In this document: positions 16,178 to 46,387 of the stretch, piece by piece
Position numbering within the stretch: the stretch's first letter is position 1
How the letters are laid out: each line of letters opens with the position of its first letter
Source: Solirubrobacteraceae bacterium
Lineage (GTDB): Bacteria > Actinomycetota > Thermoleophilia > Solirubrobacterales > Solirubrobacteraceae
Direction: 5' to 3'
Assembly (NCBI GenBank): GCA_035995645.1
Contig: DASYKG010000082.1
Location: 14,205 to 78,204, forward strand
Length of the DNA: 64,000 nucleotides
The notes under the pieces: generated by a model
The model's input: the letters and a program-made list of their open reading frames with translations, nothing else
What the model was told of the DNA's origin: nothing
Databases searched by the model: none
Position numbers and translations under genes: made by a program

Positions 16178-16353
16178 GCGGCTCCTTCCGCACGAGCCCT
16201 TCGTCTTTCAGACCGGTCGAGGTCTCCAGTGCGGCTTTCGGCCAACGATGCCTTCGTCGCGCCGGGCATGGAGCGCGCTTGCCCCAATCCGTCTCGCCGC
16301 TAAGTTCCTCGAACCACGAACCGCAACAAAAATCCTGGCGGGGAACAGCCGCA

Positions 16354-19300: not shown

Positions 19301-22300
19301 TGGACCATCGTCCACCTGCCGTTGACGAGCGAGCTGACGGCGAAGTAGCTCTGCGGATCCGACGGAGCGTCCCTGACCACAGCCTTCGTGCTGCCCAGCT
19401 GTTGCGCAGTCGCATCAGGTGTGTTCGGGAAATCGGTTTCTCGATCTGGTGTCTTGAAGACCTTGTATGCGGTAGCGCCGGGGACGGGGTCCCATTCGAG
19501 CGCAATCGCGCTTGCGTTGCGGCGGTGCCCTTTGATCGTGGGCGTTTCCCCAAGGCTGAGGACGCGGTCGTGAGTGACCAGCGAAGGGTGCAGTTCGACG
19601 TCGCCGCCGACCTTCTGGATGAAGGAACGCTTGAGGTCGACTTCTCCGGTTGCTTCTGGCACAAGGATGAATTCGCCGCTCCAAAAAGTCTCGCCCGGCC
19701 CTATTTCGCGCGTCGCGTAGGCGTTCTGCTGCGCGGGCTGCTCGATGTAGCCGTGTCGCCCTCGTTTCAGGAGTTCTATTTGGGGGTCGTAGACAGGCAC
19801 GTCGGCGACGTCCTTCATCCCCACCTTGACGTGGAATGGATAGCTGTCTTTTAGCTGCTTGTCCACGTCGACTGTCAGCTGTATCGCCGATGCGCCCCAC
19901 ACGTGGATCGGCGTCGTCGTCGCGGCGCTGAGGTTGAGGATTCGCCCGAACGGTTCGAGGCTGGCGGCATACGTCGCCGCGACGTTGTATTCGCCTTCGG
20001 TATCACCGCGCAGCACCCATTGCGCCGTCGCGCTCCCTTCGCCGGGGATGTCGGGCAGGCTCTGCGTGTAGGCCTGCTTGACGGCCGTCGGCGCAAGGCT
20101 CATTCCTCCCGGCACCGAGATCGTGGCGTGCCCGCCTGAGAGCGTAAACGGCGCGGGGGCGAGGTTGTCGACGATCATGCTGACGCTGAAGAATTCCTTC
20201 AGCCAGCTCGCCCTGAAGGGGATCACCAACGAGGAGAGGATCGGGGCTTCCGCGCCAGGCACAAACGTGACTGTCGTGAAGATCGTCGCTCCGCCCGCGT
20301 GCCATACACAAGTCGTCTTGCCGTCACAGCTACCACCGACGAAGCCTCCGCCGCCAATATAGCCTCCGAAGGCTCCCGCACCTCCACCAACGCCACCACC
20401 ACCGCCGCCCGCCGGCGCGAAGGGAACGACATTGATGTGCACGTCGAATTCGTAGACGTGCCTGTTCGCCGGGTCATTCGGATCGATGCCGGCGTCTTCG
20501 ATTTCCTTGAGGTTCATCAAGTGAGACGTAACGTGGGCCGTCGCGGTGTTGCCGGGCTTCAATTCGACCGTGCCTGCCCCTTCGTGGCCTTGGACGAGAG
20601 CGTGGGTGGCGGTCGGGATGTAGCTGGGCTTGTAAACGTAAGCCTCGTATTCGCCGTCGCCCAGCCCGTACAGATGTGCCTTGCCGTCAGCTCCGGAGAT
20701 GCCGCGGACGCGCGTGCCGTCGCCCAGGATCACGAGCACTTCCGCGCCTTCGAGCGGCGAGCCGCCCGATTCGACGTCCTCGACGTACCCTTCGCCACCC
20801 GGCTTCGGCAAAACGTGGATCGTCACCGAGGTCGAGTCGTGCCGCCCGGGAGCGCTGACGGTGAGGATCGCTTTGTAGTCACCGGGCGCTGCGTACGCGT
20901 GTTCGACGGTGCCACCGTCCGCTTCTTCACCATCGCCGAAGTTCCAACGGTAGCCCGCTATGCCGCGCAGCGGGCGAGAGTCTTCGCCGTCGAGCGTTAT
21001 CTTTTCGCCGGAGATCACGGTCTGGTCTTCCCCCGCCTTGGCCTTTAGCGGTTCGGGCAGCGTGACCGTGATCGTGCGCGTGATCACCACGTGTTCGTGA
21101 CCATCAGTCACGTCCAACCGCATCTCATAGACACCCGGTTCGTCGTAGGTGTGTTGGAACGATTTCGCAGGCAGTACGCCGCTCGCGCTGCTGCCGTCGC
21201 CGAATTGCAGCTGGTAGCCGAGACCGTCTTCGTCGGGGTCGGCCGCTTCGATCGTGGCGGTCGTCGTCAGCGGTGCCGGACCGGAATCGCCTGCTACCTG
21301 CAACGACGCGGTGGGCGGGCGGTTGACGATCGTGAAGGCGGCTTCGACGACCGGCGAGACGTTGCCGGCGGGGTCAATAGCTCGCACCTTGAAGCGATGT
21401 TCGCCGTTGGCGAATTCTTCGGCGAAGAAGTTCTCCCCGCCACAGTCGTGCCATTCGCCTTCGTCGACCGCGCACTGCATTTCCCCTGCCTCTGAGGATT
21501 CGTAGCCGAAGCCGAGGTTGCCGCTGTGCAGCGGTTCGCTCGGAGCTTTGGTGAGCGTCGCGATCGGTGGCGTCGTATCAAGGTCGAACTTCCGCGAGAC
21601 CGCAGGGGCTTCGGCCTGACCGAATCCGTTGACGGCGCGGACGAACAGCGTGTGTTCGCCGTCGGGCAGCCCCTCGAGCGTGAGCGGGCTCATGCATGGC
21701 GCGAAGTCGCCTTCGCTGTCCACCGAGCATTCGAGGCTCCCTTCTTCGGTGGCCGAGAAGACGAAGGGCCCTGCCGCACGAGTGCGGGGACCCGGCGCTT
21801 CAATGATCGAAGCTTCGATCCGCGCTTTCGCGCTGATCGGTGCGGTCGGGTCGGAGGTCGCGGCTTCACCGGTGCCAGCGGCGTTGCTCGCGGTTTCGCG
21901 CACGCGCAGCTCAAGGCCGACATCGGCATGCGCCACCTCGTAGCCGCTGCTCGTAGCTCCTTCGATCGCTTCGCAGGCTTCGCCGTGGGAGTCGCAGCGC
22001 AGCCAGCGGTATGCTCGACCCATCGGTTCGTTGCTCCAGCTTCCTGGGCCGGCATGCAGCTGACCGCCCTCGTGAGGCGAGCCTTCGACCTGTGGCGGAC
22101 TGATGTTCACAGGCACGGCAACGCTTACGAGCTCGGTCGGGGCGGAGACGGCGGGCTCGCTCGCACCGCCCGCGTTGACGGCCCGCTCCGTGACGACGAT
22201 CCTGTGCCCCACGTCTGCTTCACCGAGCGTGTAGCTCTGCGCTTCGGCTCCGCCGATCAGAGTGCAGTTCTCGCCGTTCGCATCGCAGCGTTCCCATCTG

Positions 22301-25300
22301 TAGGCGAACGATTCAGGGACGTTCGTCCATTCGTCGCGCACCTCGCTCAGCGTGGCGCCCTCCACCGCCCCTCCTTCGATCTCGGGAACGTGCAAGTTCC
22401 GAGGCGGCAGTGTGATCACCACGGCCGTCGCTTCGGAGATCGCCGGGTCGCTCGTACCGCCGGCGTTGCGAGAGAGGACTTCCACGCGCAGCTCGTGACC
22501 GACGTCGGCGTGGCCCGCCTCGTAGGTTTCCGCTTCCGCGCCATCGATAGCCGCGCAACCTTCGCCGCGGCTGTCACACCGCAACCAGCGGTAGGCGTAT
22601 TCCTTCGGTTCGTTCGTCCAGGCACCTTGCGAGCTCGACAGCAGGTGGCCTTCCTGCGGGGTCCCAGTCACAAACGGCGCGCTTTCCAGCTCGGGCCGCG
22701 CCGCCACGATTACATCGGTGGGCGACGAGGCGGCTGGTTCGCTTTCTCCCCCCGCGTTCGAAGCGATCTCCTGCACGGTGATCGCGTAACCAACGTCTGC
22801 GGCGGTAAGCCTATAGCCGGGAGCTTCGGCGCCCGGGATTGGCAGGCAGCTGGTCCCGAGCGCGTCGCACCGCTGCCAGCGGTAGGCATATTCGCTCGGT
22901 TCGCCGGTCCACCCACCGTGCTTCTCGCTGAGCATCTGACCCTGCGCGGCGCTTCCTTCGACCGCCGGTGCGGCAAGGGCGTGCGGCGGGAGCGGCAGGA
23001 CCTGCGCGCTCGGTTCGGACGTTGAGGCGCCCGTACCGCCGGCGTTGCGCACCGTTACTTCGACGGCGAGCTCGTGATCGACGTCTTCGTGGACTGGTTC
23101 GTAGGAGGCGGACGTAGCGCCAGCGATCGGCGAGCATGCATCACCCTGCGCGTCGCAGCGCAGCCAGAGGTACTCGTATTTGTCGGGTTCGTTCGTCCAC
23201 GAGCCGGTCGAGCTGCTCAGTTCGTGCGCTTCCTGTGCGACCCCCGAGATCTGGGGCGCTTTGACGACGACCGGCGATGAGGCGACGACCTGCGGTGTCG
23301 GCGGGGAGGGCACGAGCTGGCTGTAGCCGCCGGCGTTGTGCGCCCTCTCGGCGACCACGGTGGTGTGCCCGACGTCCTGGCCGGTCAGCTTGTAGGTCGA
23401 CGCGTTCTGACCGGAGAGCACTGAACATTCCTTGCCCGTGGCGTCGCAGCGCTCCCACTGGTAGGTGAAGCTGTCGGGTTCGTACGTCCATTCGCCGTGA
23501 TGCTCTTCGAGCGTGCCGCCTTGCTTGGCCACGCCCGTGACCGTCGGGGGCGCGATCGTCGCGGGAACGGGCGGCACGACGACGGCGGTCGGTTTCGAAT
23601 CGGCGGGTTCGCTGAGGCCGCCGGCATTTTCGGCGCGTTCCTCGAACTCGAGCCTGTGTCCTACATCAGCCGCGATGGGCGTGTAGGCGTCTTCGTTCGC
23701 TTTGTCGATGGCCGTGCACGACGCGCCTGCGCTGTCGCAGCGCAGCCACTGCAGCTTCCTCGTCGTCGGGTGGCGCGTCCAGCTGCCGTTTTCAGCCGTC
23801 AATGCCTGACCCTGCTGGGCAAAGCCGATGATCGTCGGCACGTGGATGCTCGTCGGTGGGAGCGGTAGCACGATCGCCGTCGGCCCCGATGTCACGCCTT
23901 TGCCGGCCCCGGCCGCGTTCGTGGCGCTCTCTTCCACCTCGAGCCTGCTGCCGACGTCGGCTTCCACGGGTTCGTAGGCCTGCGCGCTCGCGCCGCCGAT
24001 CGTCTGACATCCGAGCCCTTCGCTGCTGCAGCGGATCCAGCGGTAGGTGTAACCGGTCGGTTCGTGCGTCCACGTGCCGTGCACCTCGGCGAGCTTGTGG
24101 CCTTCCTGGGCCGAGCCCGTGACGCTGGGCGAGGCGGTCGCGACCGGCGGCGGGCTGATCAGGTCTGCGTTGATTTCGCTGGTTGTCGAGCCCTGCGTGG
24201 CGCTGACCGGATCGGCTTCCAGCTGGTTGAGTCGGTGGTCGTACCACTGCACGTTGTATTCGCTCGAGAAAGGGCTGAACTCGATGCGGTAGCTGCCCGT
24301 GGGAAGGCCCTGGGCCTTGTAGGTGCCGTTCGCTCCCGTCGCTGTCGATGTCGCATAGCTGCCGGTTTCTGCGTTGAGGACGTAGACGTTGATGCCGGAC
24401 AGCGCCGCTTTGCTGTTTGCGCTGCGCACGATGCCCGTGACGATCGCGCCTGTCGCGAGCGATGCGTCGATCCCGCCAGTCGTCGCGCCGAGCACAACCG
24501 CGACGTGTTGCCCTTCGGCGGCGTTGCGCTTGCCGGAATAGTACTGCCCGGCGTAGTTGAAACCGGCGTTTTCGAAATACACCGTGTATTCACCGGCAAG
24601 CAAGGCGGCGATCGTGTAACGGCCTTTCGCATCCGTGCGCCCGCAGTAGCTTTCAAATTCGCCGATTCGAGTGGCGCAGGCACGGATCTTTTCAATCGGG
24701 CCGCCGCCGGCCTGCGCGGTGACGGTCCCGGAGACCTCGCCGCCGAGCTGCATCGGGGCATTGATTCCGGCCACCGTTTCCCCTTCGTTCACTTCCAGTT
24801 GCTGAGCTTCCGAGGAGCGCGTCTTGCCCGGATACCACTGCAGCAGGTAGTTGAGCGCGTTTTCGAAGGGCGAGCGGAACTCGACCGCGTACTTGCCGGT
24901 GACCAAGCCCGCGAGCGTGTATGTGCCGTCGGCCGCCGAGCGAACGCAACCCGCGTAGATGAAGCCTTCGCGCATGGCACAGACTTCGATTCCAGCGAGG
25001 GGCGTGCTGCCGCCCGCGTCGGTGACCCTGCCCGTGACTTCGCCTCGCTGTCGCACAACCGCATCGATCGCAGACGTGCTCTCCCCTGCCGTCACCGACA
25101 CGGAATCGGCGTCTTCGAGGTTGTGCTCGCCGTTGTAGAAGGCTTCCGTGTAGGAGTAGAGCGAGAAGCTCACCTTGTACTGGCCGCTACCTAGGCCTAC
25201 GATCGTGTAAGCGCCGTGACTGTCGCTGTACGCGCAAAGCTGACGTTCTACTTCCGCCATCGCGTGTGCGCACGCGAGCACGTTGGACAGAGGCGTGCCG

Positions 25301-28095: not shown

Positions 28096-28499
28096 TCCAG
28101 CCCCCAGTCTCGACGACCTGTCAGCGCGGCACCATACCTAAAATGGAATAAGTCTGTCTAGTCGAACTTGCTGTGACCGCGCATGGCGGCGACGGGTGCA
28201 CTTAGCTCGTGGCCGGATCCCTGTCGTCACGAATGCTCCCGAGCCCGACGCAAGTAGGTCGCGCCACAGCGTCAGGGGTGCGTCGCAATCTCGCTCTCGC
28301 GTGGGAGGCGTCCGGGTTGCTGCTCAACGAGACGCTCGAGTTGAACGAAAAGCGTGTGAGAGCGATCGTTACCAGCGCCATGAGCGACAAGCTCAGGTGC
28401 TTGCCGGGCAAGTCAGGCGTGCGCGAGGGCGCGCATCTGACTCACCGGGTGACGCCCAAGACGACTCAACGTCGCGTAGGACGAGGCGTGCCCATGCGT

Positions 28500-29033: not shown

Positions 29034-29372
29034 TCACGTCGTCTCTGAGGCGAGCGGTCGGCTGCTACCACCCGACCCAAAGGCCGCCTCCACAAACACC
29101 GACTCGTGCGCGCTCGGCGAGTAGTCCGCGTAGCGCTGCGTCGTTTCGATGTCCCGATGCCCCATCCAGTCCTGCAAGGTCCGCATGGGCACACCAGCGC
29201 CAGCCATCGCCGTACCGAACGTGTGGCGCAGATCGTGGAAGCGATGCGACTGCTCAAGCTGCGCGGCCTTGAGCACCCGGCGGAAGCGGCGCAGGATAGC
29301 CGCCTTGTCGAGCGGCGCCGCCGTGTGAGGATCAGCGAACACGAGAGCATCGCCACTGCTCTCCCCCGCCGC
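29034..29372 (-). pseudogene. Tyrosine integrase B, C-terminal fragment only
   Basis: LVFADP, RFHDLRHTFGT, WMGHRDIETTQRY; no upstream half. Confidence 0.88.
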
Positions 29373-29377
29373 GCGGC

Positions 29378-30169
29378 GCTGGACACCTTCGACGCCGCCG
29401 ACCTGCTCGCGTTCCGCCAGGAGCTCGTCGACGCAAAGCGTGCGCGAGCACGGTCAACCACTACCGCCGCGTCGTCCGCGGCGTCTTCGGAACCAGCCCG
29501 AGCAGCCCTGCGCTCGCCTGGCCCTGGATGACCCACAAGGTCGAGAGCGAGGGCAAGCTGCGCTTCTACACACCCGCGCAGGTCCGCAGGCTGATCGCCA
29601 AGGCCCACACGAACATGGACGCTGCGATCTACACGCTCGCAACCGAGGCTGGGCTGCGTCTGTCGGAGATCCGCGGGCTGAAGGTCGCGAACGTCGACTT
29701 CGAGGTCGGCGTGCTTCGCTTCGAGGACGGCTACACCACCAGCGGCGGGCAGGCCGGCAACAAGGGCAGGCGTGTGCGCTCCGTCCCGATGAGTGCCAAC
29801 GTGAGAGCCGCGCTCTGGCCGTTCTGCAACGGCCGCCCCGCCGAGGCGCTCGTGTTCGAACACGAGCGCAAGCCCGGCGAGCCGATCTGCGGCATCTCGA
29901 TCTGCTGGCGGTTCCTCAGCGCCTCCAAGAAAGCCGGGCTGCCGAAGCTTCGCCTGCACGACCTGCGCCACAGCTTCGGCACCCAGGCGATCCGCGTGTT
30001 CAAGATCCACGAGGTACAGCGGATGATGGGCCACCGCCACATCACCACGACCGAACGCTACCTGCACTACTCGCCCGACCCCGACGGAGCCGCCAAGCTC
30101 AGCGCGCTGTGGGCAGATCCCGGCGGCGGCGAGACAGGGGACGTGGTGCCGCTTCACCGCGCGGCGTGA
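29378..30169 (+). pseudogene. Tyrosine integrase A, N-terminally truncated and frameshifted
   Basis: Catalytic GLRLSEI, LHDLRHSFGT, MGHRHITTTERY; upstream LDTFDAADLLAFRQEL (frameshift) STVNHYRRVVRG; points at tRNA-Cys. Confidence 0.88.
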
Positions 30170-30267: not shown

Positions 30268-30339
30268 TGACCGGGGGGCACACACCGGTCGGCAGTGTCA
30301 GCCCCTCTGGATGCCCATGTTTGCAGGCGTTTCTCAAAG

Positions 30340-30410
30340 AGGCGACGACCGGAATCGAACCGGTGTAAACGGCTTTGCAGGCCGCTGCGTAGCCACTCCG
30401 CCACGTCGCC
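30340..30410 (-). tRNA. tRNA-Cys(GCA)
   Basis: GGCGACG/CGTCGCC acceptor stem, GCGGC-CTGCAAA-GCCGT anticodon arm, TTCGATT T-loop; CCA not encoded. Confidence 0.97.
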
Positions 30411-34715: not shown

Positions 34716-35738
34716 TCAGGAATTCTGCAGCGCGACCTGCGCTGACCGGTCCGGCAGCAGCCGACCGTCTGCGTCTGGGTGGACTCCACACACCACGAGC
34801 TGCGCACCAACGGGGAGGGCATCGACGTCGAGGCCCGCGTCGCTCAGGCGACGAATCACCACGGTGCCGTCGTGACTACCGCTAGCCTCCTCAAGCCACA
34901 CCGTCAGCCCGCCGGCTGCACTGCTTTCGGCCCTGGCGACACGGCCTCGGACGGCGCCGCGCGTCCAACTCGGCGAGATTGCCTCCCAAAACGCCGGGCA
35001 TTGGGGGGCGAACGAGCAAAATCGGCACGTGACCTCGCCGGCGTTCGCCGGCGGCACAGTTCCCGTGAGAGCCTGGTAGCCGACTAGTGATTCGACCGCC
35101 TCGTCGGCGACCCTTTCGCACGTCCCAGACTCGATGCTGACGGACACAGGTGGTCCACCGAAGCGCAGCAACACACCGCTCTCCGGCCATCGGCCAGAGC
35201 GGTCGTGCTCCAAGACTGCGTATAGCTGCAATTGGACCTGGAAGTGCGGGATAACCTCGCCGTCCTCATCGACCGTACGCCCGGTCTTGTAGTCAACTAT
35301 GACGTGTAGTCGCTCGGAGTCGATGATCAAGTCGACGACGCCGTGGATGGCGCCCTCTCTCGCGTTGAGCGCTTCCTCGCTGAGCGTGACAGCGCCGGGC
35401 CCAGCCTCGCTCGTCAGCTCGAGTATGCGGGCCACGATTCGTCTCAACCGTGCGACTGCGACACGGACGCCCCGCACCTCACGACCTGGAGCCTGCCTCT
35501 CCAGTTCCCCCACAAAGCGCTCCTCAACGAGCCAGGCGGCGTCCTCTCCCACAAGCTCTCCAAGCCTGATGCACTCGGCCAGCGCGACGTGTAGAGAGTC
35601 GCCGATAATCTGAGCGTCCGCCTTTGCCGCCGACTTCTCTGCATGTTGCTTGAATGCGACTCTGAGGGGGCATTCCGCGAGGTCTTTCAGTCGCGACGGC
35701 GAGACGGAGTTCAGAGCTAGAGCCTTCGGCAGGGTCAT
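34716..35738 (-). CDS. PD-(D/E)XK nuclease, Cas4/AddB-like with four-Cys cluster
   Basis: ECPLR, GVVDLII, VDYKTG, QLQLYA, CRFCSFAPQC; ATGA-coupled to the helicase. Confidence 0.88.
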   Translation of the reverse strand: MTLPKALALNSVSPSRLKDLAECPLRVAFKQHAEKSAAKADAQIIGDSLHVALAECIRLGELVGEDAAWLVEERFVGELERQAPGREVRGVRVAVARLRRIVARILELTSEAGPGAVTLSEEALNAREGAIHGVVDLIIDSERLHVIVDYKTGRTVDEDGEVIPHFQVQLQLYAVLEHDRSGRWPESGVLLRFGGPPVSVSIESGTCERVADEAVESLVGYQALTGTVPPANAGEVTCRFCSFAPQCPAFWEAISPSWTRGAVRGRVARAESSAAGGLTVWLEEASGSHDGTVVIRRLSDAGLDVDALPVGAQLVVCGVHPDADGRLLPDRSAQVALQNS

Positions 35739-38700
35739 CCGCCTGCTGCGATCTTGCCGGGCCGACGCAGCAGGTCGAACGACGAGACAATCTCAAGGGA
35801 CCCCAAGCCGCTCACTAGGGCACGATCCTCGGCGTCAGCCGCCGCAAGTGAAAGCCTATTCGACCAGAAGCTTTCGTCAGGATTCTCCATTGGGTGGTTC
35901 ACCAGGATCGAGCGACCATAAAACCGGATGAGCCATACATCGCCGTCTAGCTGCTCACACTCAGCGTCAAACGCGGTCGCGAAGGCACGAGCAACGTCGG
36001 CCTCCATCTCGGCCCAGCGACTAGTGTCGAGGTCCCTCCCCCGAGCGAGGTCGACCCAGTCTCGTGCCAACCGCCAGTCGAGCAGCGCGTGGTAGGCCTG
36101 GTTCTCGTACGCCCGGAGGCAGCCATAGCAGGACGAGTCGCATCGGTGACGCTCTTCGTCCTCAAGCTCTGTTAGGTAGGCACCGGTGGACTCGATGAGC
36201 TTGGTTAGCTCGGAGTGGCTGCCGAGGTGCGTGCAGTACCCCGCGCCGTTCTCAAGCGCATCCGCGAGGAATATCCACCCGCGCGCCGCCTGTCCGGGAC
36301 GCGGCTCGAACCACAACCCGACCCGCAGCTCCCGACCCTGGACGTCGAGCTGTCGCGCTGCCGCTTCGCGGACCAGGAACCCGGCCGAGTAGAGCGTCGC
36401 CCGGGCGGCTACGCCGGACTCGAGCCGCGATGGGTCAAGCAGGAGCTTTGAAGGCACGTCGACAGGCGAGAGGAGCAGCGTATCCGTGCGGAACCTCGAA
36501 CCGAGTGCGACGGTAACGGTTGCATCGTCTCGAAGGTCTGGAATCCGGTATTGCCGAGCGCTGGCTTCCTTTAGGTCAACGGAGAACCACCCGTTGATGT
36601 TGCTATTGACGGCTGGCGCCAAGCGAAAGCCAGCACCACTGTTGTCGTTCAACACGTAGAGGTAGTCTGCACCGACTCTCGCTTCCAGGTTGTCTACCTC
36701 GACAACTCGCGAGACCGCGCCTGGCACCAATCGGCCACCGGATGCCGCCGGTCTCCACTCGAACTGGCCGTCGTAGTTGCGCGGCCGCATATCCGTAATG
36801 AAGCCTTCGGGCTGCCTCAGTGTGATGGGACCGAAGCGCGGATCCGTCTCGCCGCAGACCGGACACGCCTGTGGCGCCCCCTCCGCGAGTGGCTCGACGT
36901 GCAGACAGGCGCGGCAGTAAAGAAGTTCCTCCTGTGGTCCGAGCGGATCCTCGTGATACTGCCATCGTCCACCGTAGAGCTCCCAGGCGCCGATGCCGAC
37001 CGCGGTATGGACCGCCTTGTCCTTCGGCGTCTCGGCACCCGGCGCGAACTGACTAACGGCGATCTCGATGTCCCGATCGATCACACCCTTGGGTGGCAAG
37101 GATCGTCCTTTCGGGTAGTCGTGATACAGGTATCGCACACGGGTCGGAAAACCGAACATTGGGAGCAAGCCACCCTCGGCCAGTGCCTGGCTAAGGTCGG
37201 CGTCCGCGTGATTCGCCTCGGCGATTTGGTCGACCGCGTCGAGCATGTCCGTGCCGGTCCAGGCCATCAGCGTTGCGGCCTGAGACTCAAGGTCGCTCCC
37301 CTCGAGCAGCGCCGCGACAGCCGCCTGGATCGCTGCGGCGTGGGTGCTGACCCAATCACGCACGAAGCTGCCGTGACCGCGTCCACCGCCTTGGGCGCGC
37401 CACCTGCCGCACGCACCAAACTGACCGTGCACATTAGAACCGAGTTCGACTTCGTCCTCGAGGCTTAGCTGCCAAAATGCCTGGCGCAATACCTCGCTTG
37501 CAAGGACACGTTGCAGGATCTCCGGGCGCGACAGATCGATGTATGGCGCCGGAGGCGGGTCACCCGTGATCTTCTCCGGGTGATCGAAGTAATAGTCGTC
37601 ATGACTCCGCCCACGGCAGACCGTCAACGCGAGCGCAAGTGGGTCACCTCGGCGTCCCGCCCGGCCAACCCGCTGCTGGTAGTTGAAGCGCATGGGCGGC
37701 ATGTTGGCCATCATCACGCCGCGCAGTGCGCCAATGTCGACGCCAACCTCCATGGTCGTGGTAACGGAGAGCAAATCGATCGCAGTGACCAACTCCTGCT
37801 CGTCATTCAAGAAGACGCCCTGAAACGCGCGCTGGCGCCGAGCGGACTCATCGCGTCCGGTTTGTCCGGTCAGCTCCTCGCAGTGAAGTCGAAAGGGGTC
37901 GCCGGCCTCGGTCGCCAACCATGCGTAATAGTTTTCCCCGGTCGCGGTCCGCGACACCGGATCGCCGAGTGGTCGGTTGCAGTAGGTACAAATTCCGCCA
38001 GCTGAGTGCAGATGCACCCGGCTACAGTTGTCGCATCGCCACTGCAGTTGACCGCCCGGCTTGATCCACAGTGCGTGGCGCTCAAGCAGCCAGCTTTGGA
38101 GTTGGTCCCCGAGACTCGAGCTTAGGCGCTCAATGAGCACCTCCTGCGGGACTCCGTGCCGATCGCCGACAGCCGTCAACCACCGCCGCAAATAGCCTGG
38201 CGGCGCATCGTTTGGGTTTCTCAGGCCGGTGAACCGCCGCCGCTGGCCCAGGATCCGCAGTGCGCCGGCGACGACGTCCGCGAACGCGTCCTCTGACATG
38301 CCGGGAGGCGTGCTCAGCCTGAGCGCCGGATCGGGTGCAGTGTGTGCGAGGCTGATCGACTCGATATCGCGGCTGCTCCCGGAGAACATCGAGTTCACGA
38401 TTTCCTCGAGCATGGCTGTGTCGATCTCCTCGCGCAGTTCGACCGCCTCCTGATCAAGTTCGGCCTGCGGCTTAGCTCGAGGCGGCGACACGTTCCAGTC
38501 GTAGATGGTGTGCCACGGGTGTTCGCGACCGCTTCCATATCCGCTCAGGCTGTAGGTGGGGCCAGCTGGGTTGATCCCGAGGCGGAGCAGCGCGCGGGCC
38601 GCCTCTCGCTGGAGGCTAGGCAGCTGTGTCGCCCCCGAGGAAAGGCGGACTAGCGCTCGTTGCGCTAGGTCCAGGTCCGAGAGCTCAAGCGGAAACCCTC

Positions 38701-41110
38701 GCGCGTAGTCCTCAATGAACCCGACATACTCCGGCTCCTCTGCGCGCAGCCAAAGCAGTGCCTGCCGGGCCTCCTGGCTCGTATTCTCTCCCCGCGCGCT
38801 CGCGAGCGCGAGGTCTACTCTCGATTGGGCCCCTGTTTCGCGCAGAACTGTCGTCACGACGAGCTGGCGCACGAGATCGCGGTAGTGCGATACCTCCAAG
38901 CCAGCGGATAGCTTTGCGGCATCCATCCGGCTGTCAGAGAACAGGACGAGTTTGCGGTTATCGTCCATATGTCTCAGCAGTTGGTCGCCTAGCACCTGGT
39001 TGGCCTTTTCGAATCCCATCCCCATGCTCCTGATTGAAGAGCGCGTGCGGGCGCGATCCTCGACAGACCGTTCGGTCCGGCCAGACCAACGTCGCTCTGA
39101 TTCATCTCCGCAGCTTGGGCAAAAAATCGGCATCGAGTTGATTTGATCGAGCTGGAGGGCCTCTGGATCCGCCCCGTTCACCCCTTGAACGTGAAACGTC
39201 CAGCCGGTGTACCCCTGAGCGCGGTTCTCGACCTGCCCAACGTGGGGCTCGTAGACGGACTTCCGGAACCCAAAGTGGTAGGCACCGCGGTTCCAGTGAG
39301 GGTTGGCGTAGGGAACCTCGGGGTCCTCACGCTGTGGCCAGTACAGCATGTAGGTGGTGGCATTCTGACCGAGCCGGGCCCGCTCAGGGATGCCCTCCAA
39401 ATCGGGGGAGTCCGGGAACAACTGCCACGAGAGCGAGTCCGGGTCCTGGGTGTAGTAGCCGCCGAGAAATACGTCCCCGCACGTCTCGCAGTAGAGGAAC
39501 TCGAGGACCCGCGCGCCGCAGTGATCGCAGTGATACCGCGGCTGGTCATAGAGTCGCCCGATATTCCGGCGAGCCTCGCTCTGGCCTGGTATGCAGTCCC
39601 CATTGGAGCATGCCCAGACCCCGAGCACGGTTCGCACAAACAGATGTCCGCGGACACGCCCGCCGGCCCGCCCTACGGAGTCCACCAGCCCATAGACGGC
39701 CTGGTTCCGCACCTCGCGGTCGTGCTCGCCAGGCATCAGCCGCTCGCCAATATGATCGATGCTGCGGGCGGCGGGGCGCCCGTCGTCTGCTACGCACGCA
39801 CGGTCGAGCGCGGAGCCAAGCCTGAGTGCTTGCGCTAGCGCCGTAGCCGCCTCGGCAGAAGCCCCGCTGATCTCACTCAGCTGGTCTACGTATGGCGTTA
39901 GGTCCTCGGGTCCCAGCTCGGCCTCCAGTGGCTCTCCCGGCCAAATATCGAATCGGTCAATCGGCTGCGCGAAGAAGCCCTCGATAAACCGCTTGTCTCG
40001 CTGCCCGTCCAGCGAAGCGCTAGTCGCGAGCACGCGGAGCTTCTCTGGTCTGCGGATCAGGTCGAGGCGATGCAGCAAATTCCGAAGCAAATAGGCGACC
40101 TCGCTGCCCTGAGTTCCGCGATACATGTGAAGCTCGTCAATCACCAGCGTGAAGACGCTGTCATCCAAATCGAGCCACGCACGAGTCGCCTCAAAGACGT
40201 TGGTGTCGCGCTGCCGCCGCAACAGGATGTTCAGCATCGAGTAGTTGGTAATAAGCAGATCCGGCGGCGCATCCTGAATGTCCCAGCGGCTTCGCATCTC
40301 TGCTCCGTCAAGGCGGGGGATGTATAGCGACACGTCCTGGTTCCGGACTGGGTTATCCGCTTCGAGCTGAATCGCCCGCGCAGACGCAGCGGCGGCCTCA
40401 CTGAGCTGCCCACGGAGCTGGTTCACCGCAGACTCCGTGGCGGGGCTCCCGGTGCCGGGCGTTTGGCTTGTGTAGCGACCGAAGTAAAAGCGATGCCCTG
40501 GCCGCTCGGCCTCGAACCACTGCCTTGCGGTTGGACCGTCGAGGGCTCGGCGGAGGCGCACCATCTGATCCTCCACCAACGCATTCATCGGGTAGAGGAT
40601 CAACGCCCGCACGGCCTTCGGGCGGCCCGGGCCTTCCTCGCGCTGCGAGTGCCAGGTCTCTTTGCCGGTCCACCAGTCGTCGCCGACGGGGGCCGGGTCA
40701 GTCCACCCCGTCGACTCGGCAACCAGCTGCGCGAGGATCGGTAGGAGAAACGACTCGGTCTTACCCGAGCCTGTTCCTGCGGTCACTACCGAGCACCTGC
40801 CGGCGATCGCGGAGCGCAACATCTGCTGCTGATGAAGACGGAGCGACGGCGCTCCCGCCATCAGGCCGGCAGCGACGAAGTCGGCAAGCTCCGACGGTGC
40901 GCCAGCGTCGATCAGTCCTTGGCGGACATCGCCCGAGGCGCTCTTCCACTCCCTTATCGGCTCAACGTATGGCTGTCGCCACGCGACGCCGTCCGTATCC
41001 AGTATCTCGCGTCTTTCTGTCTCGAGCTCGGTGCTACGAAGGCCGAACGGGGTGTCGTAGTACCGGAACAGGCCGGATCTAAGAGATTCGAAGATGGAGT
41101 CGAGTTTCAT
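35735..41110 (-). CDS. DEAD/DEAH helicase with DUF1998 (DruE-like), 1791 aa
   Basis: AGTGSGKTESF, IDELH, ATSAS, TTTMEVGVDIG, QRVGRAGRRG; C-terminal CDSSCYGCLRAYEN. Confidence 0.92.
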   Translation of the reverse strand: MKLDSIFESLRSGLFRYYDTPFGLRSTELETERREILDTDGVAWRQPYVEPIREWKSASGDVRQGLIDAGAPSELADFVAAGLMAGAPSLRLHQQQMLRSAIAGRCSVVTAGTGSGKTESFLLPILAQLVAESTGWTDPAPVGDDWWTGKETWHSQREEGPGRPKAVRALILYPMNALVEDQMVRLRRALDGPTARQWFEAERPGHRFYFGRYTSQTPGTGSPATESAVNQLRGQLSEAAAASARAIQLEADNPVRNQDVSLYIPRLDGAEMRSRWDIQDAPPDLLITNYSMLNILLRRQRDTNVFEATRAWLDLDDSVFTLVIDELHMYRGTQGSEVAYLLRNLLHRLDLIRRPEKLRVLATSASLDGQRDKRFIEGFFAQPIDRFDIWPGEPLEAELGPEDLTPYVDQLSEISGASAEAATALAQALRLGSALDRACVADDGRPAARSIDHIGERLMPGEHDREVRNQAVYGLVDSVGRAGGRVRGHLFVRTVLGVWACSNGDCIPGQSEARRNIGRLYDQPRYHCDHCGARVLEFLYCETCGDVFLGGYYTQDPDSLSWQLFPDSPDLEGIPERARLGQNATTYMLYWPQREDPEVPYANPHWNRGAYHFGFRKSVYEPHVGQVENRAQGYTGWTFHVQGVNGADPEALQLDQINSMPIFCPSCGDESERRWSGRTERSVEDRARTRSSIRSMGMGFEKANQVLGDQLLRHMDDNRKLVLFSDSRMDAAKLSAGLEVSHYRDLVRQLVVTTVLRETGAQSRVDLALASARGENTSQEARQALLWLRAEEPEYVGFIEDYARGFPLELSDLDLAQRALVRLSSGATQLPSLQREAARALLRLGINPAGPTYSLSGYGSGREHPWHTIYDWNVSPPRAKPQAELDQEAVELREEIDTAMLEEIVNSMFSGSSRDIESISLAHTAPDPALRLSTPPGMSEDAFADVVAGALRILGQRRRFTGLRNPNDAPPGYLRRWLTAVGDRHGVPQEVLIERLSSSLGDQLQSWLLERHALWIKPGGQLQWRCDNCSRVHLHSAGGICTYCNRPLGDPVSRTATGENYYAWLATEAGDPFRLHCEELTGQTGRDESARRQRAFQGVFLNDEQELVTAIDLLSVTTTMEVGVDIGALRGVMMANMPPMRFNYQQRVGRAGRRGDPLALALTVCRGRSHDDYYFDHPEKITGDPPPAPYIDLSRPEILQRVLASEVLRQAFWQLSLEDEVELGSNVHGQFGACGRWRAQGGGRGHGSFVRDWVSTHAAAIQAAVAALLEGSDLESQAATLMAWTGTDMLDAVDQIAEANHADADLSQALAEGGLLPMFGFPTRVRYLYHDYPKGRSLPPKGVIDRDIEIAVSQFAPGAETPKDKAVHTAVGIGAWELYGGRWQYHEDPLGPQEELLYCRACLHVEPLAEGAPQACPVCGETDPRFGPITLRQPEGFITDMRPRNYDGQFEWRPAASGGRLVPGAVSRVVEVDNLEARVGADYLYVLNDNSGAGFRLAPAVNSNINGWFSVDLKEASARQYRIPDLRDDATVTVALGSRFRTDTLLLSPVDVPSKLLLDPSRLESGVAARATLYSAGFLVREAAARQLDVQGRELRVGLWFEPRPGQAARGWIFLADALENGAGYCTHLGSHSELTKLIESTGAYLTELEDEERHRCDSSCYGCLRAYENQAYHALLDWRLARDWVDLARGRDLDTSRWAEMEADVARAFATAFDAECEQLDGDVWLIRFYGRSILVNHPMENPDESFWSNRLSLAAADAEDRALVSGLGSLEIVSSFDLLRRPGKIAAGG

Positions 41111-42000
41111 TGCGTTGAGATGCGCCCCAGTTCCTGCTCTAGCGATTCGGCGATCCTAACCGCCAGCCACTCGGGTACGTTCACGTAAATGATGTCCCCG
41201 TGATCGTTCCAACCCGGGCGCAGCCCGCTGCATAGCGCGGACGCCCGCGCGTGCAGTACGGGCAACGGCAGCATCCAGGGCGCGAAGAGCGTGCCGTTCG
41301 TGCCATCGGGCTGCCAGTAGAGCAAGTCGGCGGCTCCGAGGCGACGAGCCTCCGCCCAAGTCCCCACCGCCAGATCGACCTTGTAGCGTGCCCCATCATC
41401 GTCAGCGAACTGCATGCGCCGTGGCCCGGCCACGTCGTAGAGATACAGCCCCGGGTCGGTGTCGCCATCAACGCGCACGAAATTCTCGTCGAGATCGAAG
41501 CGCTCAACTCCGTAGTAAATGGCCATCGGAGGCTCGAGATATGGCCGCAGCATCGCGTCAAGCGGTGGCAAGACATCGGCCAGTCGCCCGGCAACCGAGT
41601 GGGCGAACGGCAGCTCGAATTGGCTAGCCAGACGCTCTAGCGCTTGCTCGGAGTCCGAAGCGACGAAGCACGCATCCGGCGCAGCGTGCTGGGTGCGGAG
41701 GTCCACGAAGATATCCGGCTCCTCAAGAGAGTTGAGTGACGTCGTCAGCCGGGCTGTTCTTGCGCCCACGACGAGACCGTAGCCAGCTGCGTCCGGAAGC
41801 AGCGTGACCGTGGGGCGCACCGCGCCCCAGCGTGCCCCGGGCCAGTCCACCTCGAGGTGGCCTAGTGCCGACATGACCCTGAGGGTCCGGAGCGCAGGCA
41901 CTTCCTCGCCGGTCGCCCAGGCATGGGCGCTCTCGAAGTCCGCAAGGGTGCCGGACCCCCGCTCCGCCGTCCAGTGGAGTAGCTGCTCAAACCCATTCAT
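41107..42000 (-). CDS. Hypothetical protein (DruG position)
   Basis: ATGA overlaps at both ends; LSALGHLEVDW-like motif; no recognisable catalytic motif. Confidence 0.75.
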   Translation of the reverse strand: MNGFEQLLHWTAERGSGTLADFESAHAWATGEEVPALRTLRVMSALGHLEVDWPGARWGAVRPTVTLLPDAAGYGLVVGARTARLTTSLNSLEEPDIFVDLRTQHAAPDACFVASDSEQALERLASQFELPFAHSVAGRLADVLPPLDAMLRPYLEPPMAIYYGVERFDLDENFVRVDGDTDPGLYLYDVAGPRRMQFADDDGARYKVDLAVGTWAEARRLGAADLLYWQPDGTNGTLFAPWMLPLPVLHARASALCSGLRPGWNDHGDIIYVNVPEWLAVRIAESLEQELGRISTQ

Positions 42001-44051
42001 CAGGCGCCGCACTCGCTCTGGAGGAGCTCTGCCGCGGCCTGGTAGTCGTCCCAAAGCTCTGGATCGCCCTCGGCCAGCTCTGCCGCAAGCAGCAGACGGA
42101 CCCAATCTGAGGCATCGTCATCAGCCGCCAGATCGCCGGGCGGAAGACTGGCCCGCGCCCGTGCCTTGAGCTCACCGGATGGCCAGCGCTCGACTGAGTA
42201 CTGAACGGGGAACTCTGCCCAGGCCTCGTAGAGGTGTCCCGTCAATCCTTGCTCAACCATCCACGCCGGCATCGCCGGCTTCGTAACTGAGACAAGCTCT
42301 CCAGAATGCCGACCGAGCAGCCATGCTTGTTCGGCGTGGCGTCGCAGCAACACTGGCGCCTCCCCCCAGCGATCGTCGGCGCCGCCCACATCCGGCCCGG
42401 CCACGACGATCGCAGTGTCGTTGGCGTCCTCAATTCGAGCCAATACGCGGTGAGCAGAGAGTTGGCCGCCCTTGTCGCGCTCAATCACGTGTCCAGGCTG
42501 GGCGTGCGCCGGCGGAATGACCAGGTGAGATTCAACCATCCGGACGGTGCGGGTAATCACGCCCCCGTAGTCGACGACGTGGGAAGCCGCGTCATCCTTC
42601 GATAGGTGGTCGGCAAGTCTGACTTTGTCCGCCCGATTGCTGATCTGCCGGCCGTCCAGCGCGAGCCAGAGCGTATCCTCGGTCGTCGGGGGCAGCCAGA
42701 CGTCCGGCGCGCCGCCGCTCAGGTAGCTGCCGGCCAGAGCAAGCGGAAGCCCGCCGCGGAGCGCGAACCGATGCTTCAATGTCGGGCGGCGGCCCGCAAG
42801 TGCTCCTTCGAGTACCTCGTCGCCCTGCAAGACGATGTCGCCGTACAAACTCCACGCAGCAAAAGTGCCGGGCGCTCGCTGCGCCGTGATCGGCTCCGTG
42901 CTCCAGCGCTCCAGCTGCTGCCGCACCTGGTCCGCCGCGGACGGTGCGGCCAGAACAAAATGCCTTTCGCCCGGCACAAAAGCGCTTACCGACGCCCATC
43001 CTCCCAGCTCCTCATCTAGCTGCAGCACGTGGACCTCGCTGCCGGGAAAAGTGAGGCGGCATGTCTCATCGCCCAGCATTCCACCGCGCAGCAAGTACCG
43101 CGGGTCGCTGCCCCCAACAACGAAGACGCCATCGTCGACAGCTGCCGAGCATGTCGCTCCGCCAAGCTGTCCGGCGACGCGATCTGGATAGCCGTCGGGC
43201 TGCAGCGCTTGGAGCGACACGCTGCCCGGCCTCCGCAGTCGCACCACCACGCGCAGCGCGGCAGCTCGAGTGCTCGTCCGATCGAAGCGCGTGCCATCCC
43301 AGTGGTGAGCGTATGCCCCGAGGATGCGGCCAAGGGTCGGCCAGAATTGCTCATCCTCGAGCAGGCGGTTCGCCCCAGCACTTAATGACTCCTCGGGGGC
43401 CCAAGCGCGGAAATACAGAACGAGGACGTCCTCATCGACCGCCTCGTCAGGATCGAGCTGAATCCAGTGGAAGAAGTCATCGAGGCGCCTGACGTCCGAC
43501 CCGAGGAACAGCGTTTGTGATAACGGTCGCCCGATATGTGTAAACGGAGCGTTCTCAATGACGGTAGAGATGCCTCGCGAACCTCCGAGCCGTTCGTCGA
43601 GCCACCAGCTGTAAACGCTCCAGAGATAGTCGAGTGAATCGCCGAAGCCGCTCGGAGTGCCCGGCTCGGCGATCCCGAGGAGACTCCGAAGCTGAGCGTA
43701 GTAGTTGTTAGGTGCGTAGTTCCCGGTGCCCATGCGTGTGGCCGCGAGAACGCAAACCGCAAGGAGATCCAGGAACGGCGGCGATCCGACGCCGCCGTCG
43801 AGCTTCCACCGGCGACCTTCGCGCTCAATCCGGTGGAAGTAACCATTGTGATTGCCAGGTAACCCGAGTCGACGCCGTACCGTCTCCAGGACCGAGTCGA
43901 CGGCATCGTCCGCCTCTCCGCTGAAGATGTCGCCGAGCACCTCCTCGTCAATGAAGAAGAGCACAGGCAAACCCGCGGACCGCTCCGTAAAGAAACGGCC
44001 CTCCAGGGCACGACACCAATCCTCGCGAGTCCAGCTCGTAGTGCTCCCCAT
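42000..44051 (-). CDS. Hypothetical protein (DruF position; start could be as far up as 44132)
   Basis: Long open frame (710 aa from 44132); PPFLDLLAVCVLAATRM...NYYAQL...HIGRPLSQ; coupled to the next gene. Confidence 0.78.
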   Translation of the reverse strand: MGSTTSWTREDWCRALEGRFFTERSAGLPVLFFIDEEVLGDIFSGEADDAVDSVLETVRRRLGLPGNHNGYFHRIEREGRRWKLDGGVGSPPFLDLLAVCVLAATRMGTGNYAPNNYYAQLRSLLGIAEPGTPSGFGDSLDYLWSVYSWWLDERLGGSRGISTVIENAPFTHIGRPLSQTLFLGSDVRRLDDFFHWIQLDPDEAVDEDVLVLYFRAWAPEESLSAGANRLLEDEQFWPTLGRILGAYAHHWDGTRFDRTSTRAAALRVVVRLRRPGSVSLQALQPDGYPDRVAGQLGGATCSAAVDDGVFVVGGSDPRYLLRGGMLGDETCRLTFPGSEVHVLQLDEELGGWASVSAFVPGERHFVLAAPSAADQVRQQLERWSTEPITAQRAPGTFAAWSLYGDIVLQGDEVLEGALAGRRPTLKHRFALRGGLPLALAGSYLSGGAPDVWLPPTTEDTLWLALDGRQISNRADKVRLADHLSKDDAASHVVDYGGVITRTVRMVESHLVIPPAHAQPGHVIERDKGGQLSAHRVLARIEDANDTAIVVAGPDVGGADDRWGEAPVLLRRHAEQAWLLGRHSGELVSVTKPAMPAWMVEQGLTGHLYEAWAEFPVQYSVERWPSGELKARARASLPPGDLAADDDASDWVRLLLAAELAEGDPELWDDYQAAAELLQSECGA

Positions 44052-44233
44052 TCCAAGCGTCGATGAGACTGCCGTCAGGCTAAGGCAACGATTTGGCCTC
44101 GGCGTTTTGGGACTTCTCGTGGCAATGTACACGGACTAAGGAACGGACTCGTCCCACTACTCGCCACCGGATCGATGCCGAGGCGTTGGCGGGGGCCCGC
44201 CTGCCAAGTGATGTGTCCAGAGCGGTGATCCGG

Positions 44234-44665
44234 CTAGGACTGAGCGGCGTGGACCTCACCGAGCACTCGGTCCGCGACCTCGTGAGTGGGCTCGTGCTCC
44301 CATGCGTGTATCACGCGCCAGCCAGCGTGCGCGAGCACGGCGTCGACGCGGCGGTCCCGGGCGATGTTGCGCTTCAGCTTGGGCTCCCAATAGCCGACGT
44401 TGCGGGCCGGGACATTGCCGTGTACTGGGCACGAATGCCAGAAGCACCCGTCGATGAAGACAGCGATCCGCCATCGCGTAAACACCACGTCTGCACGCAC
44501 TCGAAGATCGTCAAGCCGAATGGGATAATCAACTCGAAACCGAGCCCCTCGCGCATGGAGCATTGATCTGAGCGCGCGCTCCGGCCGAGTATCCCGACGA
44601 CGGTTGCGGCGCATCCTTGCCGACACGGCTGAGTCGAGGGGCTCAGGGTAGGAGACCGCGCCCAC
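44234..44665 (-). CDS. vsr: Very short patch repair endonuclease
   Basis: SARMRRNRRRDTRPE, RADVVF, IDGCFWHSCP, WEPKLKRNIARD, WEHE. Confidence 0.93.
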   Translation of the reverse strand: MGAVSYPEPLDSAVSARMRRNRRRDTRPERALRSMLHARGARFRVDYPIRLDDLRVRADVVFTRWRIAVFIDGCFWHSCPVHGNVPARNVGYWEPKLKRNIARDRRVDAVLAHAGWRVIHAWEHEPTHEVADRVLGEVHAAQS

Positions 44666-45916
44666 TCAGCGTCCCTCGAGCGGCGCCACGACCCTGCGGG
44701 GGGATGGGCCTCGCCCAGCCCCCGGGTGATCGGCATGCTGTGCTCGTCGCTCGAGGTATTGGGCAGGTACCGGCGCGAACTGCTCCGGAGGTGGGCAGTC
44801 GTCGCGCGCTTTGGGCACAAGTGGGACTCGGGGAGATAGCGCCTGTCCGAACACCTCGCGTCGAATCTGCAGCCCGAGCGCCTCGCCTACTGGCGGCGGA
44901 ACGGCATTGCCAACCTGGCGGTGCGCCGACGCCGCGTTTCCCGCGAACGACCACTCCTCTGGGAAGCACTGAAGCCTTGCCAGCTCGTCGATCCCGAGGC
45001 GCCGACTCCGCCAGTGGAAAGGTCCTGTCGCCGGGCCGGCCTGAGCCTGGATCGTCCACGAAGGTCGCGCCTTCGCTAGCTTCAGGAGGAAGCTCCAGTA
45101 GCGCGTACGCCATCCGAACAGAGGCTCGCCGGTGCCGCGAGGCGTGTGATGCAAATAGTTACATCCCTCTGGGATGCTCGGCAGCAGTTCAGCCCAAACG
45201 CCACGCGGCCGAAGTGCCGGATCGAACTCAGGGTCATCGAGATGTCCGATCGCGTCCCACGCGGTCATGTATCTCTCGACCGCCGCACTGCCGTTGGCTG
45301 CTCTCGCCGCGGGCCCGTGCGTCGCAGCCGGTCTGCTCAGACCCGAGCCATCGCGTGCGGCAAAGACGAAAACTCGCTCCCGATGTTGGGGGATCCCGTA
45401 ATCCGCGGCGTCAACAAGAAGCAGGTATGGCTCGTACGCGGTGCCATTGCGCCGATTGATGCGCGCAAGGGAACTTCGCAATACATCGAGACCCTCGTAC
45501 GGCTGCGTGACGCGCTTCCTCGCTGCCGTAATGCCCTTGACGTTCTCAAGCAACATCGCCTGCGGCAGCGTTGCCTCAAGGACACGGAAGTACGCCTCGA
45601 GTGTCCTTGCGCGGGGGTCGCGCATCCGCTTGGCAGCGTTATCGTGCCACTGCGCCGACTTCGAGAAAGGCTGGCAGGGAGGCCCACCGGCGAGTAGGAC
45701 CACCTCGCCCTTCGTTACGCCGAACGTACTGAGCACATCACTGGCGCGAAGGCCGTGAATATCGCCCGTCTGAGCCAGCGACCATTCAGCACGGTTCGTG
45801 CGAAGCGTCTGCTGACAGTCGGGATCGACCTCGATGCAGCCAGCAATCGAGAACCCTGCGCGCTCGAGCCCTACGTCGAGCCCTCCGGCACCGGTGAACA
45901 GCGAGAGAACCTTCAT
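44666..45916 (-). CDS. DNA (cytosine-5) methyltransferase (DruM position)
   Basis: Motifs FTGAGG, GGPPCQPFS, ENVKG, QHRERVF, RQVGNAVPP. Confidence 0.95.
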   Translation of the reverse strand: MKVLSLFTGAGGLDVGLERAGFSIAGCIEVDPDCQQTLRTNRAEWSLAQTGDIHGLRASDVLSTFGVTKGEVVLLAGGPPCQPFSKSAQWHDNAAKRMRDPRARTLEAYFRVLEATLPQAMLLENVKGITAARKRVTQPYEGLDVLRSSLARINRRNGTAYEPYLLLVDAADYGIPQHRERVFVFAARDGSGLSRPAATHGPAARAANGSAAVERYMTAWDAIGHLDDPEFDPALRPRGVWAELLPSIPEGCNYLHHTPRGTGEPLFGWRTRYWSFLLKLAKARPSWTIQAQAGPATGPFHWRSRRLGIDELARLQCFPEEWSFAGNAASAHRQVGNAVPPPVGEALGLQIRREVFGQALSPRVPLVPKARDDCPPPEQFAPVPAQYLERRAQHADHPGAGRGPSPRRVVAPLEGR

Positions 45917-46344: not shown

Positions 46345-46387
46345 CTGCAAAGCCGTTTACACCGGTTCGATTCCGGTCGTCGCCTCT
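46345..46387 (+). mobile_element. att core: 43-bp duplicate of the tRNA-Cys 3' half, inverted relative to the tRNA
   Basis: CTGCAAAGCCGTTTACACCGGTTCGATTCCGGTCGTCGCCTCT is the reverse complement of 30338-30380. Confidence 0.93.

Follow-up and report, generated by a model that had tools for sequence, protein, structure and literature searches.

A probable Druantia type IV operon with the nuclease DruK beside a methyltransferase-Vsr cassette in a Solirubrobacteraceae bacterium

The described systems closest to the locus studied here are Druantia types II, III and IV. Type II is given as DruM-DruF-DruG-DruE (Doron et al. 2018, as cited in PMC8565338) and corresponds to the 'type IV CoCoNuT' of Bell et al. 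(2025, PMC12458937), in which an inactivated Vsr-like domain is predicted for types I and II only. Type III is the pair DruH-DruE, with biochemistry and structures reported in 2026 preprints (10.64898/2026.05.13.724313; 10.64898/2026.05.12.722862; 10.64898/2026.05.13.724758). Type IV consists of DruE, DruF and DruL without DruM and DruG, was counted in 168 instances from 11 phyla, and is exemplified by an 8.6 kb locus of Streptomyces pratensis with F-L-E only (Payne et al. 2021, NAR 49:10868, PMC8565338); it is one of four DruE clades and accounts for 18% of loci (Loeff et al. 2026). The experiments of Payne et al. covered Zorya III, Hachiman II and Lamassu II, and Druantia IV was not among the systems tested (PMC8565338). 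Here, we analysed a stretch of 64,000 nucleotides (the window) from a Solirubrobacteraceae bacterium (assembly GCA_035995645.1, contig DASYKG010000082.1, positions 14,205 to 78,204 of the forward strand), in which a first-pass annotation had described six genes between 34716 and 45916 as an intact Druantia type II-like operon extended by a Vsr and a Cas4/AddB-like nuclease. We conclude that the genes from 44051 to 34716 are very probably a complete Druantia type IV operon, DruF4-DruL4-DruE4, together with DruK, that it was acquired horizontally, and that the methyltransferase and Vsr genes next to it form a separate, exchangeable cassette.

The six open reading frames (ORFs) are all present on the minus strand at exactly the coordinates annotated before, and the proteins are considered intact because all six align nearly end to end to PADLOC family profiles. 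Their order, with the gene that follows them, is:

44666..45916, minus strand: C5-cytosine DNA methyltransferase (C5-MTase), 416 amino acids (aa), ATG start
44234..44665, minus strand: Vsr, 143 aa, GTG start
44052..44233, minus strand: intergenic gap from Vsr to DruF4, 182 nt
42000..44051, minus strand: DruF4, 683 aa
41107..42000, minus strand: DruL4, 297 aa
35735..41110, minus strand: DruE4 helicase, 1791 aa
34716..35738, minus strand: DruK nuclease, 340 aa
33699..34666, minus strand: MrcB_N-HNH gene, frameshifted, 49 nt downstream of DruK

The hidden Markov models (HMMs) of PADLOC name the core DruE4, DruF4 and DruL4 and the nuclease DruK, which bears out the earlier assignment of the locus to Druantia. 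The best DruE profile for the helicase is DruE4 (PDLC00051) with 1926 bits, residues 5-1788 aligning to positions 8-1820 of 1829, whereas DruE2 reaches 1674 bits. The 683-aa protein matches DruF4 (PDLC00052) over its full length at 2.7e-71, with DruF2 about equal at 5.3e-70, and the 297-aa protein matches DruL4 (PDLC00057) at 1.1e-54, aligned over 4-307 of 309. None of the six proteins matches any PADLOC DruG profile at E<=0.01. The caution that DruF and DruG had been assigned by position only was thus correct, the third gene being DruL4 by profile; the subtype has to be revised from II to IV, and the gene order cannot be equated with DruM-F-G-E, as DruL4 occupies the place of DruG.

The locus therefore has the three genes that define type IV, i.e., a DruE4-class helicase, an adjacent DruF4 and a DruL replacing DruG. 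The absence of DruM that also belongs to the description does not apply, as a DruM2-like C5-MTase lies upstream of DruF4, beyond Vsr and 182 nt. This leaves membership in the family intact, and it is the published description that seems too narrow. The nuclease has its best PADLOC match in DruK (1.4e-29), with Cas4 profiles next, and because this profile already exists in PADLOC-DB, the idea of a novel extended variant has to be given up. The DruK profiles (PDLC00058-60) are numbered directly after those of DruE4, DruF4 and DruL4, and the association is therefore known to the curators, as judged from the profile name and this numbering; a literature search found no paper mentioning 'DruK'. The locus belongs to a kind already known rather than to a new system, both additional elements being already modelled or ordinary.

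The six genes form two units rather than one chain. The stop codon TGA of the MTase directly abuts the GTG of Vsr (CTGA|GTG), as had been noted, and the 182-nt gap that follows uncouples this pair from the other four genes, which is why we treat it as a separate unit. The four genes from DruF4 to DruK had been described as chained by ATGA overlaps. This is true of the DruL4/DruE4 and DruE4/DruK junctions, so that the nuclease is indeed coupled to the helicase by a 4-nt overlap, but DruF4/DruL4 is a 1-nt TGATG overlap. A scan of 33.2-46.45 kb for promoter and terminator consensus sequences gave nothing better than chance.

DruE4 is a YprA/MrfA-like superfamily 2 (SF2) DExH helicase with Zn-rich insertions, and its DEAD, Helicase_C and C-terminal MZB/DUF1998 domains (Pfam) agree with the DUF1998 helicase of about 1800 aa expected from the first reading. 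Walker A (G112-T118), DELH (325-328) and motif VI (Q1145-R1154) do not vary among 12 homologues with identities as low as 43%, and the same holds for Cys 1657, 1661 and 1664 of the MZB domain. In a profile search, the best solved relative is 9wae_A, 'Helicase' (2.7e-171), followed by 9tu7 (1.8e-44), and the MrfA/YprA-type structure 6znp is matched at 2.7e-10. Only about 125 residues lie beyond the MZB domain, and no recognisable nuclease domain was found there.

By its motifs, DruK is predicted to be a Cas4/AddB/Dna2-type PD-(D/E)XK nuclease with an Fe-S-type four-Cys motif, in agreement with the earlier description. It scores 78 bits against PDDEXK_1 (Pfam cutoff 22), and its profile finds the solved structures of Cas4 (4ic1), Dna2 (5eaw) and AdnB (6ppu); the score against the Cas4 model TIGR00372 (34.9 bits) stays below the trusted cutoff of 65. 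D136, D149-x-K151, Q169xxxY173 and C238/C241/C247 are invariant in 20 orthologues, and C23, which completes the four-Cys pattern with C238-x2-C241-x5-C247, is present in at least 90% of them. The arrangement D...DxK...QxxxY with C...CxxCx5C is shared with the Cas4, AddB, AdnB and Dna2 domains, from which DruK differs by the lack of a CRISPR context, an additional domain of about 90 aa at the C-terminus and the coupling to DruE4.

The identities proposed for the other pair hold as well. The MTase scores 168 bits against PF00145 and 136.4 bits against TIGR00675 (cutoff 100.65), and motifs I (FTGAGG), IV (PCQ), VI (ENV), VIII (QHRER) and X (GNAVPP) can be read in its translation; among PADLOC profiles, DruM2 (3e-69) and the generic MTase_II (1.6e-64) fit about equally. 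Vsr reaches 131.5 bits against TIGR00632 (cutoff 97.85) and 61 bits against PF03852 (cutoff 27), with a PADLOC Vsr match at 1.6e-17. These matches identify a predicted C5-cytosine DNA methyltransferase and a predicted very-short-patch repair endonuclease for T:G mismatches. A Vsr beside a C5-MTase is the ordinary Dcm-Vsr pairing. No cognate restriction endonuclease (REase) was found beside the MTase: MTase, Vsr and DruF4 lie too close together to accommodate one, and the next gene upstream encodes an MMPL protein, so the sole nearby nuclease candidate as a partner is the frameshifted MrcB_N-HNH gene after DruK.

The relation between the operon and such cassettes was assessed in 80 DruE4 loci of other genomes, on contigs of one genome per species with flanks of up to 10 kb on each side. 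Their six-frame ORFs were searched with phmmer and locally rebuilt HMMs, and loci with at least 5 kb on both sides (n=61) were termed well-flanked. DruF4 is found in 77/80 and DruL4 in 78/80 loci, and DruK directly follows DruE4 in 20 of the 79 evaluable ones. In the DruE4 tree, loci with DruK turn up on scattered deep branches, among Chloroflexota, Paenibacillus, Thermoleophilia, Acidimicrobiia, Pirellula and many Actinomycetes, and this distribution resembles that of an ancient gene that was lost repeatedly.

Of the well-flanked loci, 32 have a C5-MTase at a distance of no more than 5 kb, namely 12/13 with DruK versus 20/48 without it (Fisher p = 0.0013, with no correction for phylogeny). 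Among six more DruK loci, from metagenomes, five have a PF00145 gene near DruK, and in the sixth (L086) the gene after DruK is truncated by the contig end. As a background, only 23/101 genomes of the same class have a PF00145 gene of any kind. About 19/61 well-flanked loci have no DNA MTase of any kind within 5 kb, and of the 29 without a C5-MTase, 10, all from a single Streptomyces clade, have N6_Mtase genes at 0.6-5 kb upstream of DruF4. The description of type IV as lacking DruM reflects this clade rather than the whole family. As an observation apart, the clade (L024, L031, L034, L036, L037, L061, L063, L065, L070 and L076) is also without DruK, and its upstream genes are one or two in number and encode about 700-980 aa, the representative L024:1279-3552 being an N6_Mtase (PF02384).

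The C5-MTases themselves differ from locus to locus. They lie upstream or downstream of the operon on either strand, a Vsr adjoins the MTase in 21/47 MTase-bearing loci, and the median pairwise identity among them is 31%. The DruE4 proteins of L001 and L085 are 71% and 74% identical to that of the window, whereas their MTases are only 34% and 28% identical. Co-inheritance of MTase and DruE4 was considered and rejected, as the Mantel correlation (r 0.53) is driven by near-identical Streptomyces loci and in the closest relatives the MTase has been replaced. At least 15 of 44 loci with an MTase have a recognisable or likely type II REase next to it, among them NaeI family enzymes (PF09126, 3.9e-110) in seven loci, SacI-like enzymes in the MTase-REase-Vsr cassettes of L001 and L087, a REase_II (1.5e-83) in L080, an EcoRV-like enzyme in L088 and HNH REase_II-like proteins. 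In L005 (7404-10844), the C5-MTase after DruK is followed by the AAA+ ATPase HmaC (2.2e-168), for which reason it is assigned to an Hma system stacked on Druantia IV. The variable position and strand, the replacement between close relatives and the presence of their own REases argue that the MTase is a separate, exchangeable module.

The Geodermatophilus locus L057 shows how closely the two modules can be interlocked. A C5-MTase and Vsr lie upstream of DruF4 (3998-5865), and the gene of a NaeI-family REase (15482-16516) overlaps the end of DruK, so the Druantia operon appears nested inside a restriction-modification (RM) system. The window is laid out in the same way, with MTase-Vsr, then F-L-E-K, then a nuclease gene. 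The near-universal C5 cassettes at loci with DruK and this layout speak against mere coincidence; the data favour a real association and cannot choose between a self-mark and a cooperating RM system. The MTase-Vsr pair is best read as a modification or RM cassette that habitually travels with this form of Druantia.

The gene after DruK encodes an MrcB_N/DUF3578 domain (1.3e-16) in one frame and an HNH motif in the next. In E. coli McrB, MrcB_N is the 'ADAM' domain, which binds methylcytosine (PMC11090510). An intact orthologue of 298 aa occupies the same position in the metagenome locus L085, followed by Vsr and an unrelated C5-MTase; it is 64% and 57% identical to the two halves, and its alignment places the frameshift between 34358 and 34375. 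The gene is likely a seventh, now inactive member of the cassette, and it has been inherited with the operon, unlike the MTase. Its intact form alongside a C5-MTase in L085 weakens the view that it necessarily conflicts with cytosine methylation. We also considered the gene as a general component and rejected this, as it was found at this position in L085 only; the other HNH proteins in some loci do not form one family.

The mechanism that we propose is inferred as a whole from homology. The DruE of type III is reported to be an SF2 helicase that unwinds from single-stranded DNA (ssDNA) and forked DNA (10.64898/2026.05.13.724758; 10.64898/2026.05.13.724313), to engage ssDNA, forked DNA or 5'-overhang junctions and, with DruH, to clear phage DNA while the cell is not killed. 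By analogy, DruE4 would use ATP to load on exposed ssDNA, forks or ends of incoming or replicating phage DNA and unwind it. DruK would degrade the displaced strands in trans, a function assigned to it since DruE4 has no recognisable nuclease domain after the MZB, and DruF4 and DruL4 could serve as sensor or adaptor subunits. The MTase would methylate host cytosines and Vsr would repair the T:G mismatches that arise by deamination of 5-methylcytosine (5mC). The pair may mark self DNA for Druantia, or may be the remnant of a type II RM system working alongside, in which case restriction cuts could give DruE4 its entry sites.

It is possible, though we would not bet on it, that the MTase-Vsr pair, perhaps with the MrcB_N-HNH gene, is a separate decayed RM or type IV restriction cassette that became adjacent by accretion of the island and is functionally unrelated to Druantia. 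Complete MTase-REase-Vsr or MTase-REase cassettes do occupy the equivalent place elsewhere (SacI-like in L001 and L087, NaeI in seven loci, EcoRV-like in L088), the MTases of close relatives are unrelated, the pair has a transcription unit of its own, and defence islands commonly stack systems. The excess of C5-MTases at loci with DruK, subject to the same lack of phylogenetic correction, speaks against a chance neighbourhood, as does the almost exclusive C5 class of the modification genes at these loci, and an operon placed between MTase-Vsr and a nuclease gene in both L057 and the window is hard to obtain by side-by-side accretion.

The opposite proposal is equally tentative. It holds that type IV operons with DruK and 5mC cassettes, in which the MTase may or may not be joined by Vsr and by an REase or a methyl-C-reader-HNH protein, make up a single, undescribed functional unit. 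The cassette is repeatedly replaced and almost never lost at loci with DruK. Restriction ends could load DruE4 and DruK degrade the DNA, or 5mC could gate the helicase-nuclease irrespective of its sequence context.

Somewhat less probable is the original proposal that the six genes are one RM/DISARM-like variant of Druantia type II, in which the MTase is DruM, an obligatory self-marking subunit, and the helicase-nuclease attacks unmethylated DNA. The DruM2 match, the near equality of DruF2 and DruF4, and the C5-MTases at nearly all DruK loci against a very low genomic background are in line with it, and repeated independent gain of different C5-MTases would indicate selection on the pairing. 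Type I Druantia is also reported to add a host N6-methyladenine mark (10.1101/2024.04.14.589459), types I and II are said to carry MTase modules, and the ten Streptomyces loci lacking a C5-MTase have N6 MTases nearby. Yet the third gene is DruL4 and not DruG, the generic MTase_II scores as well as DruM2, and the MTase stands in a separate unit of variable place and strand that is not co-inherited. At least 15 of 44 MTases are paired with an REase of their own, one is part of an Hma system, and almost a third of the well-flanked loci manage with no DNA MTase within 5 kb. A mark that changes between close relatives would moreover have to be read as 5mC independently of context, and no reader domain was seen in DruF4, DruL4, DruE4 or DruK. 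The notion of a methylation-marked self is thus neither shown nor excluded: C5-MTases are strongly enriched by these operons, yet swapped between close relatives.

That the helicase and nuclease are a DNA-repair module (MrfA/YprA-MrfB-like or AddAB/AdnAB-like end processing) and not immunity is highly improbable, for although DruE4 shares the YprA/MrfA core and MZB (6znp) and DruK resembles the nuclease domains of AdnB, Dna2 and AddB, the repair helicases, of about 750 aa, branch separately (Bell et al. 2025, PMC12458937), DruE4 fits defence profiles over its full length, the operon is absent from 30/30 relatives and shares a low-GC island with remnants of integrases and genes of RM type, and the related loci are patchy over several phyla.

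Several points weigh against our reading of the locus as a type IV operon with a separate cassette. Our literature search found no experimental test of any Druantia type IV system. As the type is described without DruM, either the adjacent MTase does not belong to the system or that description has been drawn too tightly. The last 125 residues of DruE4 could hold either a dead or a live nuclease domain, and the roles of DruF4, DruL4 and DruK are deduced, with both fold searches empty.

DruF4 and DruL4 have no Pfam or NCBIfam match, and profile searches of both against PDB sequences were empty. The AlphaFold2 model of DruF4 (mean predicted local distance difference test, pLDDT, 80.7) has a helical N-terminal domain and beta-sandwich domains, and that of DruL4 (pLDDT 96.5) a winged-helix-like N-terminus and two alpha/beta domains. 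Foldseek against the PDB returned no significant neighbour for either (best E 0.12 and 0.46, respectively) and neither a McrB/CnuB-like nor a nuclease fold, and on these models both folds appear novel. DruF4 and DruL4 are fused into one ORF of about 1030-1135 aa in about nine relatives (L003, L027, L044, L054, L059, L066, L067, L072 and L074), and DruL4 weakly matches the C-terminal third of the long DruF2 profiles of PADLOC. DruL thus resembles a C-terminal part of DruF that has become a gene of its own.

The window has about 70% G+C, with a stretch of 63-65% over roughly 12-47 kb. Around the operon lie two partial tyrosine integrases, tRNA-Cys, tRNA-Val, a HicB-like gene and a gene with a helix-turn-helix (HTH) domain. 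The integrases and the tRNA-Cys sequences are placed as follows:

29034-29453, minus strand, and 29300-30169, plus strand: two partial tyrosine integrases
30339-30410, minus strand: tRNA-Cys, intact
46345..46386, plus strand: 42 nt identical to the 3' part of tRNA-Cys, att-like remnant where island and host meet

The partial integrase genes overlap back to back beside tRNA-Cys, and the island is therefore considered immobilised. Together with the frameshifted MrcB_N-HNH gene, they confirm the earlier remark that the neighbours decay. The 42-nt copy lies 20 nt before the host MMPL gene, in the opposite orientation to the tRNA-Cys, from which it is separated by 16 kb. A search for direct repeats bounding the island gave chance-level short repeats only. 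A model with one inversion predicted an N-terminal integrase fragment at 31.8-32.9 kb, near tRNA-Val; none was found, and the model is thus not supported. No DruE4 homologue was found in 30 relatives, 18 of them of the same genus. This absence, the low GC, the integrase fragments and the tRNA-Cys repeat show that the operon lies on a foreign, rearranged and immobile island, of which it is the sole intact large unit. The same low-GC stretch contains an ORF of 3927 aa (16354-28137, minus strand) with many CarboxypepD_reg, PKD, SdrD_B and Ig-like repeats and a GDSL/SGNH lipase domain, from which a giant surface protein can be presumed. In other genomes, close relatives of the operon stand beside conjugative genes (TrwC relaxase, the coupling protein TraG/T4CP, ParB-like and Replic_Relax; L085 14126-21020 and L087 1-438). 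This suggests that the operon spreads on integrative conjugative elements.

Type IV is catalogued and widespread, and DruF and DruL are without known fold. The locus presented here is a compact, intact example that has kept every catalytic motif, which makes it suited to cloning. Although the discovery itself is modest, our survey corrects the published picture by showing that nearly all type IV operons with DruK have C5 methylases beside them, often in full RM cassettes with Vsr, and the link between DruK and 5mC cassettes provides a testable question on the cooperation of restriction with a helicase-nuclease.

DISARM class 2 combines DrmA, DrmB and DrmC with the C5-MTase DrmMII, and the DISARM core includes DrmB (DUF1998). 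The locus shares with it the DUF1998/MZB helicase family, a C5-MTase and a proposed RM-like logic. The accessory proteins of DISARM are unlike those of our operon: among the six proteins, PADLOC found only weak local matches to DrmA (1e-10) and no DrmB, DrmC or DrmE. With type III, the locus has in common the helicase core with Zn-rich insertions and MZB, as seen in the match of 9wae and 9tu7 to DruE4, and probably the trigger, i.e., ssDNA, forks or ends. The two PLD-like domains at the C-terminus are missing from DruE4, which is shorter by about 300 aa, DruH is absent from the locus, DruK and DruF/DruL are present, and type III leaves the host unmethylated. Type II is closer, with a C5-MTase, a DruF homologue and a related DruE, but the window has DruL4 for DruG, its helicase fits DruE4 better, its MTase is outside the coupled operon and no McrB/CnuB-like fold was found for DruF4 or DruL4. 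Type IV is the closest: DruE4, DruF4 and DruL4 are the best full-length HMM matches, the coupled F-L-E order is the same and DruK follows DruE4 as in a quarter of the relatives. The published form is without DruM and its paper is silent on DruK, whereas the window and over half of its well-flanked relatives have a C5-MTase within 5 kb, usually with Vsr and often with an REase.

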